Shown piece by piece: positions 5,543-28,285 of a DNA stretch of 64,000 nt; the stretch's first letter is position 1; each line of letters begins with the position of its first letter. The translations under genes and the position numbers were made by a program. Source of the stretch: a virus (lineage: Duplodnaviria > Caudoviricetes); IMG/VR virus record IMGVR_UViG_3300026549_000038, positions 64,001 through 128,000 of that record; one strand, given 5' to 3'. The notes beneath the pieces are model-generated. The model had not been told where the DNA came from. It did not search any database and worked only from the letters and a program-made list of their open reading frames with translations.

Positions 5543-6388
5543 CTACACTCCTCGTTTTGTATCCCAGATTCTAATATGAAGTCTATCACTATACCCCCAG
5601 CCGTTCTCCAGTGCTTTCTCAGCAGTCTCGAGGCAAGCCGCATCGATATCTTCCTTAGTTATTCCTTCAGGCATTAAAAGTGTGTAGTTGTTTGGGTGGT
5701 TTCTCATCCACCAACGGAGCTGTGCACTGTCCCCCATGTCCACATGCTTGCTCATCAGAGCATAGATTTCTTTTATCTCGTCTATGCATTCTGGTCCGCT
5801 ATAAACAAACTTCATCTGATATGGAACCCCGGTACTGACTATATTAAATAAGACTTTTGGATTGATTCTCGAGCGATTGTGATTGTCTATTTGCTCTTGC
5901 GAAAGGATAGTTGTATCTTTGGCTACACTAGTACTAAGTTTTGGGCTAATGCTATAAAGACTCACCTTGTAATTTCGGGCAAGCGGATTCAGTGGCATCT
6001 GCGTTCCATTAGTTTCTATGGTAACTATCCAGTCCTTAATAGTGAATGCTCGTCCAAGAAATTCTTCCAATGCCTTATGATGCAGAAGCGGTTCTCCGCC
6101 AGTAATCACAAGATGCTTTACTTTTTGATGCTTATTAACGATTTCCTTCATCTTTTGAAGAGCTTCATCTTCACTATACGAAGGTTTCTCTGGGTTGAAA
6201 CTACTATATGGTGTATCACAACGCGTATGTCCAAACACACATCTCAGATTACACCCGCTCGTGCGGATAAAAATAGAAGGCTGCCCTGCATAAATTCCTT
6301 CTCCTTGAATACTATAAAACAATTCTATAATAGGAAGCATATTAATTATGTTATTTTTTGTCATTTGCTTTTCTGTCGTCGTACTCAA
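5543..6388 (-). CDS. queE: 7-carboxy-7-deazaguanine synthase (radical SAM)
   Basis: ELFYSIQGEG, GCNLRC..RCDT, VITGGEP, IETNG, SISPK, RLH. Confidence 0.92.
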   Translation of the reverse strand: MSTTTEKQMTKNNIINMLPIIELFYSIQGEGIYAGQPSIFIRTSGCNLRCVFGHTRCDTPYSSFNPEKPSYSEDEALQKMKEIVNKHQKVKHLVITGGEPLLHHKALEEFLGRAFTIKDWIVTIETNGTQMPLNPLARNYKVSLYSISPKLSTSVAKDTTILSQEQIDNHNRSRINPKVLFNIVSTGVPYQMKFVYSGPECIDEIKEIYALMSKHVDMGDSAQLRWWMRNHPNNYTLLMPEGITKEDIDAACLETAEKALENGWGYSDRLHIRIWDTKRGV

Positions 6389-7107: not shown

Positions 7108-7704
7108 CTAACTCCTAGCATTTTCATGGTTTTCTATGGCTTCTTTTCTATATTCTTGCAAGCGTTTTACATACTCTGGAGTTTTATAATATCCGCAGCT
7201 TTTCAATTCTGGACAGAACCCGCGGTAGATGCATTCAGGAACCATTTTCGATGCAAGAACCGGGTCTATATCCTGTATTGCTGCTTTGACCTGTTTCCAA
7301 GCTTCTCGTGTTTCGGGAGAAGCACAACTACAGAGTCTTTTTCTTGAAATGTTTATCAATGATTGTGCGTTGGCAGACATAAGCATGTCATTCAAAGATC
7401 CTTGGGGCATCTCGTCTCTCGAAACTGGATTTTCTCTTCGATCGTCTCTTTGACTGTGCACGAACTTTTCGCAACCTTCGTGGTGTCGAACCAGATGAGT
7501 GGTTACCCATTGTTTTATGTCTTCCCATTTCCAGTCATACTCAACCAGTCTTATAGGAGAATGTTCGGCTAGAAGCATCTTTGCTTCCCAGTCAGAGCTA
7601 ACTTTGTGATTATCAGGCAGTTGCGACTTACCAACAGTCTGCCTGGCGGCGTTCAATGCACGAATCCAAGGTGTAACTTGTTGTATATTAATTACTTTCG
7701 ACAT
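7108..7704 (-). CDS. thyX: FAD-dependent thymidylate synthase
   Basis: AARxT, EHSPIR, HLVRH...SQR, RLC..A..ETR. Confidence 0.85.
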   Translation of the reverse strand: MSKVINIQQVTPWIRALNAARQTVGKSQLPDNHKVSSDWEAKMLLAEHSPIRLVEYDWKWEDIKQWVTTHLVRHHEGCEKFVHSQRDDRRENPVSRDEMPQGSLNDMLMSANAQSLINISRKRLCSCASPETREAWKQVKAAIQDIDPVLASKMVPECIYRGFCPELKSCGYYKTPEYVKRLQEYRKEAIENHENARS

Positions 7705-7709
7705 ATAAA

Positions 7710-7919
7710 TTAAAAATCGTATGTTTCTTCTTTTTCTATATCTCCGAGTTTATCAAATAACTTCCAATCTGTTTTGAAAAAATACTTTCCGTATCCTCCA
7801 TCAACTAACAACTCAAACGAATCATCATATTCTACAACAATTTCTTTTGGTGCACAAATAGATACGTCTGCGTTGTTTTTATTAATCAAAAATACAAAAT
7901 CTGTTATGCCGTCTATCAT
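7710..7919 (-). CDS. Hypothetical protein
   Basis: 69-aa co-oriented ORF. Confidence 0.55.
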   Translation of the reverse strand: MIDGITDFVFLINKNNADVSICAPKEIVVEYDDSFELLVDGGYGKYFFKTDWKLFDKLGDIEKEETYDF

Positions 7920-7940
7920 ATATTATTGAAAATTTAATTG

Positions 7941-8026
7941 TACCGGAGACGGGAATCGAACCCGCACGACCTTTTCGGATCATTGGATTTTAAGTCCAAA
8001 GCGTCTACCTATTCCGCCACCCCGGC
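7941..8026 (-). tRNA. tRNA-Leu(TAA)
   Basis: Full cloverleaf, long variable arm, CT-TAA-AA loop, no intron. Confidence 0.95.
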
Positions 8027-8179
8027 TCGTCTATCGAGTGCTTTGAGAACTTTCCTATCGTATTTTCTCTTGTTCTTAACAACTCTTGTAGGTCTTGTAC
8101 TAATAAGCTTCCCGAAGGTTTCAATTTCGAGCTTTCTATCTACAGCCTTTATACTTTTTATGTATGTTCTCTTTCTCAA
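8009..8179 (-). CDS. 56-aa basic protein, ArfA-like candidate; stop codon lies inside tRNA-Leu
   Basis: TTG start overlapping upstream TGA; MRKRTYIKSIKAVDRKLEIETFGKLISTRPTRVVKNKRKYDRKVLKALDRRAGVAE. Confidence 0.6.
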   Translation of the reverse strand: MRKRTYIKSIKAVDRKLEIETFGKLISTRPTRVVKNKRKYDRKVLKALDRRAGVAE

Positions 8180-8562
8180 TTTTCGTTGTTTGTAAATGGA
8201 GCCAATAAAGTAATTACATCGTTTAAATTATAAACGTTTATGTTTAACGATTGGTGCTGCTTATTGTCTGTGTTCCCACCAGGGACTGCCAAATACATAA
8301 AATAGCACTGTAAGAACTCATGTTTATTGCCTCCATCTGAATCAGAAACGTATCCAGGTTCTGCTCCCCACGAGAATACAACAGCATGTTGGTCTGCAGG
8401 ATTGATTACATCTTGTCTCTCTCCATTAATGATTATAGTTTGTGTTGTCCCTGGAGTCCACCAGATCTTATACCACCCCTCTAATCCTTTTTCTGGGTCT
8501 TTATGATACATGAATTTACGATCTTTCAACCAGACTTCTATTTGCTTTTTTAATTCTTCCAT
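8176..8562 (-). CDS. Hypothetical protein
   Basis: 128-aa co-oriented ORF. Confidence 0.7.
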   Translation of the reverse strand: MEELKKQIEVWLKDRKFMYHKDPEKGLEGWYKIWWTPGTTQTIIINGERQDVINPADQHAVVFSWGAEPGYVSDSDGGNKHEFLQCYFMYLAVPGGNTDNKQHQSLNINVYNLNDVITLLAPFTNNEN

Positions 8563-8566
8563 CTAT

Positions 8567-9334
8567 CTAAATAGTTAATTTAAAAGTAAACGGATCATAG
8601 GTTGGATGATAATCTTCATCAAGAAGAGAGACATTTCTCATCTTAGTCTCGTGCCCGGAATCAGTCACTATTGTTTCAACTTCGTGAAGTCCCGAGTGGA
8701 CATGCCCGGAAAGTACCCAATCTATCTGTCTTGGCCTAATTGTATCCGCAAGTTCCTGACATCCAAAATTTTTTCCGTAATTCCAGTTACCGTTCTGAGT
8801 AACCAATCCTTGAGATCCTATTCTAGGAGGAGTATGAGTCAACAACACTTCGCATTTCTTCGGAATACGACTAAACTTCTCTACCAGGGTTGAACTGTTT
8901 CCGTAGAATGCCCACCTGCTCAAATCAGGTATCCAAGGAGTCCCATAGAACTTATGCCCTTCTATCACGACGCTACTGTCGCAAAGAAGTTTTACAATAT
9001 GTTGTTTGTATTGATCTAGGTAGAGTTTCTTCAAGATATCAACCCCGGATCTTCGCGAACCTAGTTCTGCGCTTTCAAAAAAGAAATCATGGTTTCCGGG
9101 TATCACCAGAACATGTTTATATCCGTAATCCTTAAGCTTGTCTGTCCACGGAGTAAATTTTTGAAGCAACCAGGACACGGTTTCTAAACCACTCAGCTGA
9201 TATTTTAGCGGTACTATATCCCCACAGATACAGAGAACATCTCCAGCAGGGAAATCTGATACGCTTGGTAGATACCCATGAAGATCACTGATCGCCGTAA
9301 CATTGAGTTCTTTTTTGACTATTTTTTGATCCAT
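8567..9334 (-). CDS. Calcineurin-like metallophosphoesterase
   Basis: SDLH, CGD, GNHD, THTPP, GHVH. Confidence 0.92.
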   Translation of the reverse strand: MDQKIVKKELNVTAISDLHGYLPSVSDFPAGDVLCICGDIVPLKYQLSGLETVSWLLQKFTPWTDKLKDYGYKHVLVIPGNHDFFFESAELGSRRSGVDILKKLYLDQYKQHIVKLLCDSSVVIEGHKFYGTPWIPDLSRWAFYGNSSTLVEKFSRIPKKCEVLLTHTPPRIGSQGLVTQNGNWNYGKNFGCQELADTIRPRQIDWVLSGHVHSGLHEVETIVTDSGHETKMRNVSLLDEDYHPTYDPFTFKLTI

Positions 9335-17307: not shown

Positions 17308-17391
17308 TGGTAGCGGGAGGAGGGCTCGAACCTCCGAGGCTTTCGCTGCGGCTTATGGGACCGCCCAGATACCGACTTCTGACATCCCGCT
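17308..17391 (-). tRNA. tRNA-Met(CAT), atypical (C33, extended variable arm), CCA encoded
   Basis: AGCGGGA/TCCCGCT acceptor, GCGGT-CC-CAT-AA-GCCGC. Confidence 0.75.
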
Positions 17392-26925: not shown

Positions 26926-26957
26926 ATAGTAAATAAATATTAAATATATTTAATCAT

Positions 26958-27029
26958 TGAGGCATGGTGTAATGGTTAGCACCGCAGATTTTGAGTCTGC
27001 TGGTTTGGGTTCGAGTCCCGATGCCTCAA
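26958..27029 (+). tRNA. tRNA-Gln(TTG)
   Basis: TGAGGCA/TGCCTCA, GCAGA-TT-TTG-AG-TCTGC. Confidence 0.93.
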
Positions 27030-27046
27030 CAACCAAAATAAATGTT

Positions 27047-28285
27047 ATGAAGACAATATCTTTTGACTTTAAATTAAGAAAAGACATTCAATCCGAAGAA
27101 AACGGATACAAAGGGAGATACAAAGTACAGACAAGGGAAGGAAATCCTGCGAGAATTATTTGCTGGAATAGAAAGGATGATGAGTATCCAATTGTGGCAC
27201 TTGTTGAGGCTTATTCCATTGAAGTCTCACTTTCATACCGCAAGAATGGAATGTATAATTCTACTGATTCTACTTGTGAGTATGATTTACTTCTTGTAGA
27301 TACCTGGGAACCGAAGTTCGAACTCTGGGATAGGATAGTAAACCGGGGAATAACCTTCGATATAGTATCAATTGATTACGCATCAAAGAAATACGGGGTG
27401 GTTTCTGATAGTCCATATACAGACATATGTCGTGTTACGTTTGATGACCAAGACGGATTCGAGCTTGTAAAGCCCTTATCAGGATTCAATTATAATGAAG
27501 GGACTGTTATGAGATGTGCTGAAGGTCCAAATAAAGGTTCTCTTTGGTTAAGATGCAGCGATAAGCTTGTCAAAAGCGATGGAGTCACATTTAGTCCTGC
27601 AGGACGTTACTCTGAGGGACTTTACTACCCGGCAAATAGAAAAGAAACTGATCTGTTCTTTGCTGAACTTGATGAAAATGGATATAAATACAGTCCCGTT
27701 TTGGGGGCCATCACTAAAAAGCCCAAATTCAAAATTGGAGATGGGGTGAGGTATAAGAACGGTGACGGAACTGAGTATAAGATTGTCGACATGCTAGAAG
27801 CCAGCTATCGAGTGATTCAATCAGATAAGAGAACCAAACTGATTTTATTTGATGATGATGACCATCTTGAAATCGCCCCAGCAAATACAGCTAAAGACTT
27901 TAAGGTAGGGCAAGTATTAAAATGTCTTAGTACCGGTCACCTGTGGTTAAACCGTGATGGGGACTGCCTTAAAAGTGATGGACATACTGTATCTATTGGA
28001 GGAACTTACGAAGCGGCCAGCCAGGAGGAGTCTGACAAGTTCTTCAAGGAACTTGATGAAAACGGGTATATATGGAATCCTGAGAAGAGAAAGGTAGAAA
28101 AGAAAGAACCGGAACTTACAGACTTCGAACAAGAAGTAAGAGATATTGTCACATCTGCTCTTACAGTGACTTCGGAAGACGGGTCTTGTTCTCTTACAGT
28201 AGCTGTAGATGATAAGACCGCAAGAAAGATAGCAGTAGGTATAAACAAACTGGTGACTAAAAAACTTTTTCATGAGCGTTTTTAA
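27047..28285 (+). CDS. Hypothetical modular protein (start revised to MKTISFDF)
   Basis: Shared domain with 21615..22394; internal PKF..GD and FF.ELDENGY repeats. Confidence 0.8.
   Translation: MKTISFDFKLRKDIQSEENGYKGRYKVQTREGNPARIICWNRKDDEYPIVALVEAYSIEVSLSYRKNGMYNSTDSTCEYDLLLVDTWEPKFELWDRIVNRGITFDIVSIDYASKKYGVVSDSPYTDICRVTFDDQDGFELVKPLSGFNYNEGTVMRCAEGPNKGSLWLRCSDKLVKSDGVTFSPAGRYSEGLYYPANRKETDLFFAELDENGYKYSPVLGAITKKPKFKIGDGVRYKNGDGTEYKIVDMLEASYRVIQSDKRTKLILFDDDDHLEIAPANTAKDFKVGQVLKCLSTGHLWLNRDGDCLKSDGHTVSIGGTYEAASQEESDKFFKELDENGYIWNPEKRKVEKKEPELTDFEQEVRDIVTSALTVTSEDGSCSLTVAVDDKTARKIAVGINKLVTKKLFHERF

Follow-up and report, generated by a model that had tools for sequence, protein, structure and literature searches.

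The window analysed here is a stretch of 64,000 nucleotides and forms part of a 160,192-bp viral contig, whose nearest DNA relatives are crAss-like phages from the gut and the rumen. On its minus strand, the ORF list and the family profile described below define a small-basic-protein ORF of 56 codons and a TAG stop (8009..8179). Its TTG start codon (8179-8177, minus strand) overlaps the TGA (8178-8176) of an upstream gene of 128 aa (8176..8562, minus strand), an arrangement that suggests translational coupling of the two. At its other end the ORF reads into a type II tRNA-Leu(TAA) with a long variable arm (7940..8026, minus strand), which was called by ARAGORN and by Rfam RF00005. The RF00005 match has 57.1 bits against a cut-off of 29 and is full length (7941-8026, model positions 1-71), and according to folding the cloverleaf forms in the transcript context. 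The ORF enters the tRNA at a codon boundary: 8027 is the last base of codon 51, tRNA nucleotides 1-3 make up codon 52, and the TAG (8011-8009, minus strand) corresponds to tRNA nucleotides 16-18 in the D loop. Given where the tRNA begins and what RNase P generally does, a cleavage site for this enzyme is predicted between 8027 and 8026 (minus strand). Processing of the tRNA 5' end at this site would leave the part of the ORF that lies 5' of the tRNA, 51 codons (8027..8179, minus strand), as a stop-less message. The coordinates given in a first-pass annotation made from the DNA letters are all correct, and its claim that a cut at the 5' end of the tRNA would leave an mRNA without a stop is supported.

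A co-oriented ORF of 69 aa (7710..7919, minus strand) starts 20 nt past the tRNA-Leu, which thus sits within a string of genes. A scan of the phage locus found no terminator between the small ORF and the tRNA-Leu, nor in the ORF itself. Because the tRNA-Leu must leave a transcript that also carries the ORF, the predicted RNase P cut would leave a message ending at codon 51. The phage contig holds 26 tRNA genes, and at the other 25 no conserved gene reads into a tRNA. Neither a suppressor tRNA nor a tmRNA or release factor was found in the phage genome, in which PF00472 (the RF-1/GGQ domain) also had no match. The TAG is therefore a stop, and its recoding was rejected on the lack of a suppressor tRNA and a release factor.

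Several other features of the region were recorded. The neighbour at 7108-7704 (minus strand) is ThyX-like, with a partial PF02511 match (E 2.8e-8) confined to the C-terminal part of the profile, and the gene at 8567-9334 (minus strand) encodes a calcineurin-like metallophosphoesterase (PF00149, E 6.8e-12). Between 11778 and 17571 of the window (minus strand), 24 tRNA genes in one orientation form a bank; it contains two tRNA-Cys(gca) genes and an unusually long tRNA-Met of 84 nt (17308-17391). Mechanical ORFs of up to 89 codons cross some of the tRNAs of this bank, for example from tRNA-Ile into tRNA-Ala, and are probably spurious. Elsewhere, a 442-codon open frame (26957-28285, plus strand) opens with a tRNA-Gln(ttg) (26958-27030, plus strand; Rfam 59.7 bits); the mechanical TTG start of the frame falls at the tRNA, and the true start is probably further downstream. 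This is a gene directly after a tRNA and not a stop within one.

The phage ORF had no match in Pfam or NCBIfam. A word-indexed search gave one homologue, which was then used as a seed and led to 34 close homologues of about 58 aa from metagenome-assembled genomes of rumen and gut Bacteroidales, all labelled hypothetical and sharing an almost invariant core. With an exhaustive profile search, 78 distant representatives of clusters formed at 50% identity were obtained. Against the family profile, the phage ORF has an E-value of 3.9e-28 over profile positions 2-54 of 59; the match spans 8185-8027 and ends one base before the tRNA-Leu. The phage protein is 55-64% identical to its homologues in rumen Bacteroidales, and the invariant columns are common to both. 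For 32 distinct core DNA sequences, the entropy at codon positions 1, 2 and 3 was 0.54, 0.39 and 1.21 bits, and synonymous and non-synonymous codon differences across the core DNA of the family stood at 6052:2862. The variability of the third position and the synonymous excess identify the protein, and not an RNA, as the conserved unit, and a reading of the element as a small RNA was rejected on the codon-position statistics.

Three phage contigs carry the family, namely the contig studied here, a short contig from a related phage (L058) and a 221-kb IMG/VR contig of a jumbo phage (L059). In L058 the ATG of the small gene overlaps the TGA of the upstream gene at the position of the phage TTG, and this common position and overlap validate the unusual TTG start; the upstream 128-aa gene is 37% identical (E 2e-25) to its counterpart in L058. 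The phage ORF is thus a real gene. IMG/VR was scanned with profile and sequence queries built from the family, the 128-aa gene and the L059 protein, and one family profile recovered L059. Beyond this, IMG/VR, JGI metagenomes and GenBank phages (tblastn) yielded no new phage copies or phage relatives. In the ESM Atlas, the nearest cluster by language-model features (score 0.91) comprises 51 viral (Uroviricota) hypothetical proteins of 60 aa, which suggests that there are more phage copies than IMG/VR or GenBank showed.

The family consists of basic proteins of roughly 50-90 aa and is restricted to Bacteroidales and phages; no name or description of it was found in the literature or databases searched. 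It was present in 33 of 401 sampled Bacteroidales genomes (about 8%) and in 6 of 401 genomes sampled across the Bacteroidota. One rumen Bacteroidales genome (G002) holds two copies, at C15:22614-22793 (E 2.5e-22) and C8:59088-59279 (E 1.3e-17). In family members a charged helix at the N terminus is followed by an extended, invariant segment around GKLISTRP and by the basic tail KSKKxYxRK, and the GGQ motif is absent from all of them. AlphaFold2, run with the family alignment, gave a model with a mean pLDDT of 70, in which residues 3-22 are predicted to form a helix, residues 23-41, including the invariant core and KSKKxYxRK, an extended stretch, and residues 42-52 a short helix. Some members are labelled 'uncharacterized C2H2 Zn-finger protein' by JGI/IMG; their sequences have no Cys/His pattern, and the label appears to be an error of automatic annotation.

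The 3' ends of the bacterial genes were then compared. At the first three loci, an A-tract, a GC-containing hairpin and a T6-T9 run lie within the ORF, few codons past the core, and the stop codon follows 50-110 nt beyond; in two of the three the tail of the ORF overlaps the end of a convergent gene. Of 43 distinct bacterial loci in an HMM-anchored survey, 20 have a terminator (dG -12 to -26 kcal/mol) ahead of the stop. Under the same criteria (last 150 nt scanned, dG -12 or lower), only 1 of 176 ordinary ORFs of at least 120 aa from the same loci had one (Fisher p 1.7e-15). The T-run begins 32-50 nt after the YxR motif, and the hairpins vary in sequence between lineages while their position is constant. 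Twelve fresh loci that had not been used to form the terminator idea, all of them additional copies in the taxonomic family to which genome G739 belongs, were also inspected. At all 12 the terminator precedes the stop, with cores and hairpins conserved, and the tails diverge completely right past the T-run, with stops at +51 to +162. The surveyed and fresh loci together give 32 terminator-type loci out of 55.

At one locus (L078, G818:C172:4417-5129) the frame across the hairpin differs from that of close relatives and the hairpin and T-run are intact, which shows directly that selection acts there on the RNA structure and not on the peptide. Distant members have unconserved C-terminal tails of very different length, often with runs of Phe, because the terminator precedes these tails in the ORF. 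A simple terminator scanner missed the in-ORF terminators, whose stems are extended by A/T pairing; they were detected with RNAfold and a custom scan. At L017:1889-1940 and L019:2693-2743 the tail of the ORF reaches about 50 nt into the 3' end of a convergent gene, and with A-tracts upstream and T-tracts downstream the terminators may act bidirectionally for both genes. For brfA, the same arrangement has been demonstrated experimentally to yield a non-stop mRNA, the product of which is held low by trans-translation, and the only characterised genes of this terminator-in-ORF design are rescue factors (PMC6881298).

The remaining 23 of the 55 bacterial loci are stop-type, with ordinary stops 27-48 nt after YxR, so that non-stop expression is not obligatory for the family. 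Apart from a few singletons, they belong to the close rumen clade or to a clade whose members have short acidic ends. RNAalifold applied to the 3' ends of the stop-type rumen clade detected no conserved hairpin, and a hidden RNase III site in the style of arfA was rejected for this clade on that result. In a poorly resolved tree of 42 columns the terminator design is scattered, with at least 7 changes, and occupies the unresolved base. At one bacterial locus (L045, G508:C256) the frame runs 240 codons past the core into an apparent next gene and no terminator was found, which could reflect a fusion, a lost terminator or an assembly issue.

In the same 42-column tree, with the placement of L058 disregarded, the phage copy nests within the stop-type rumen Bacteroidales clade with 100/99 support. 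Its nearest homologues, in the rumen clade, L058 (TAA) and the jumbo phage L059, all have their own stops, and the tRNA read-in is therefore a single derived case. The first-pass annotation had proposed to test whether homologues run into tRNAs or terminators; the outcome is positive for the wider family, with its 32 terminator-type bacterial loci, and not for the nearest homologues. In the family as a whole, 9-19 residues follow YxR, with 9-16 in stop-type and about 13-19 in terminator-type members. The phage form cut at the tRNA would have 9 residues, and the 56-aa form has 14, of which 5 are encoded by the tRNA, compared with 13-16 in the rumen clade.

The distribution of the family was compared with that of ArfB, called by NF006718 above the curated cut-off. 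Among the 401 sampled Bacteroidales genomes, ArfB was present in none of the 33 family carriers and in 131 of the 368 others (p 2.1e-6); the exclusivity is phylogenetically clustered and the genomes in this and the following test are not phylogenetically independent. Neither the family nor ArfB was found in 237 of the 401. In a single taxonomic family represented by 33 genomes, the small protein is present in 13, ArfB in 12, neither in 8 and both in none (p 5e-4), a pattern that suggests one or two replacements at the level of sub-clades. The two never occur together among the 434 genomes examined, which suggests functional redundancy. All five carrier genomes tested contain tmRNA. A census of the FCB group reported ArfB in 1,426 of 1,956 genomes and ArfA or BrfA in none (PMC11633108), which leaves the niche of a backup rescue factor of the ArfA or BrfA kind open in this group.

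The non-stop design, the exclusion of ArfB and the lack of a GGQ motif together make the family a candidate release-factor-dependent rescue factor of Bacteroidales. In most bacterial lineages, the terminator within the frame just past the core would give an mRNA without a stop, as in brfA. The product would be SsrA-tagged and destroyed as long as trans-translation works, and would accumulate upon its failure. The phage gene would have been captured from rumen Bacteroidales. Its frame now runs 15 nt into the tRNA-Leu before it stops, and unprocessed transcripts would be translated into the 56-aa protein. Where RNase P releases the tRNA-Leu, the remaining message would be a 51-codon non-stop mRNA, and the tRNA cut would thereby restore the usual regulatory logic of the family by different means. 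We put the probability that the family is a rescue factor and that, in addition, the non-stop message made by the tRNA matters to the phage at roughly 0.5. The phage-specific mechanism, which rests on one case, is plausible. A more far-reaching version is offered tentatively: an independently evolved, release-factor-dependent factor would have replaced ArfB in Bacteroidales under the control of trans-translation, and phages would have captured it, the phage studied here having rebuilt the gate with a tRNA, so that production would be tied to the maturation of the tRNA-Leu during infection. The earlier proposal of a phage ribosome-rescue backup is thus strengthened as a functional analogy at the level of the family, by the non-stop design and the ArfB exclusivity, and has lost its footing as a claim of homology to ArfA.

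Genome compaction offers another account of the junction, in which the 3' end of the gene was clipped on an abutting tRNA. The 56-aa form would then be the one that matters, or the gene would be on its way to loss, and the stop-less fragment would be waste handled by tmRNA, although the family may still be a rescue factor. Such an accident fits the nearest relatives, which all have their own stops and no processing hairpin, and it fits the single occurrence of the junction, with no further relatives in the three collections searched. A tail of 14 residues, those encoded by the tRNA counted, is also what the rumen clade would lead one to expect, and any frame that enters a tRNA reaches a stop within few codons. 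Yet homology stops precisely where the tRNA begins, which is also a codon boundary, and in the wider family a stop-less 3' end near this position has been selected repeatedly. Clipping into a tRNA would moreover cost both tRNA folding and protein yield, and purging would be expected unless the arrangement is tolerated or useful. We regard an accident of this kind as possible, albeit doubtful. That the ORF is a chance frame in a tRNA leader could have been argued from its TTG start, its absence from the lists of gene callers and its overlap with the tRNA; the profile match, the start position syntenic with L058 and the protein-level selection across the family refute this, and we give it practically no credence.

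It is also conceivable that the family acts in some other way, for instance as a small basic regulator that binds ribosomes or nucleic acids or as a toxin-like effector, and that trans-translation gates it for another purpose, such as sensing stress in translation or attack by phages. No homology or fold match links it to ArfA, BrfA or ArfB: PDB chains searched by sequence (phmmer) and by profile (hmmsearch) gave no rescue factor at E<=10, and Foldseek of the AlphaFold2 model (pLDDT 70) against the PDB gave no match. The 23 stop-type loci, the many Bacteroidales with neither the small protein nor ArfB, the zinc-finger label and weak, sub-threshold profile matches to nucleic-acid-binding proteins in the PDB point in the same direction. 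Against this stand the characterised genes of the design, all of them rescue factors, the redundancy suggested by the ArfB exclusivity, and the basic C-terminal tail and lack of GGQ, which fit the logic of ArfA and BrfA; carriage by three phages argues further against a host suicide toxin. A function other than rescue is judged unlikely. Still less probable, to the point of being hardly credible, is that the family is a true and very distant homologue of ArfA, with the K/R-rich stretch ending in YxRK shared by common descent. The best hhalign register does set the YxRK of the family on the YMRK of ArfA, and in a language-model feature search an ArfA-labelled cluster came at rank 18 (score 0.88, 174/256 features), which is below the 0.9 line of the tool and is taken as a lead only. 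However, the hhalign probability is 0.6%, BLASTP of the phage protein against E. coli ArfA aligned nothing at E<=100, the ArfA profile (PF03889) matched none of the 81 family members at E<=10, and the N-terminal halves are unlike. The ArfA motif quoted in the first-pass annotation is correct, but the resemblance carries no significance and 'ArfA-like' does not survive as a statement of homology; judged by sequence, the family appears to be at best an analogue of ArfA and not a homologue. A complex prediction of phage residues 1-51 with RF2 from a rumen Bacteroidales genome scored 0.00 and was counted neither way.

The main value of the locus is that it exposes a candidate rescue-factor family of Bacteroidales and phages. 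With the gene design of brfA and its exclusivity with ArfB, the family is a concrete and testable candidate for the backup of trans-translation in the Bacteroidales, which are abundant bacteria of the gut and rumen. Confirmation would make it one more case in which the same regulatory trick was invented independently. It may also be the first factor of this kind seen in the phylum and in any phage; no report of a phage-borne rescue factor was found in the literature searched. A phage rescue factor, if true, would add ribosome rescue to the translation functions that phages carry beside their tRNA banks, and removal of a stop codon by tRNA excision, if true, would parallel, in bacteria and phages, the tRNA punctuation of mitochondria. 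The locus is also a warning for annotation, since pipelines discard ORFs that overlap tRNAs and mis-extend genes through internal terminators.

Among known systems, ArfT of Francisella is reported to recruit RF1 or RF2 (bioRxiv 10.1101/465609). It is a small rescue factor that is confined to its lineage and has no sequence relationship to ArfA, and it provides a precedent for independent inventions. In ArfA (E. coli YhdL), as in the family, a stop-less mRNA is the gate of expression, the K-rich stretch of the basic tail closes with YxRK, and the protein is complementary to other rescue systems. The ArfA message is cut by RNase III at a hairpin within the ORF, whereas the family would use a terminator in bacteria and presumptively RNase P in the phage, and the N terminus of ArfA is unstructured whereas that of the family is predicted to be helical. 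ArfB (YaeJ) has the same presumed role as the family, that of a backup to trans-translation, but it has its own GGQ hydrolase domain and is made from a normal mRNA, neither of which applies to the family. BrfA (B. subtilis YqkK) is an RF2-dependent rescue factor made from a non-stop mRNA. Like the family it is small, has no GGQ and consists of an N-terminal helix followed by a basic C-terminal tail, and like most bacterial members it has an intrinsic terminator in the coding region few codons before the end, so that the stop is never transcribed. No sequence or profile similarity between BrfA and the family is detectable, and the phage copy differs in having no terminator, the place of which is taken by the 5' end of the tRNA. 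In mitochondria, an mRNA upstream of a tRNA receives its 3' end when the tRNA is excised, and its stop codon can be lost or shortened in the process; polyadenylation then completes the stop. The last codon of the phage message, in contrast, is CGA, from which no stop can be created, and the message cut at the tRNA-Leu would therefore stay stop-less.
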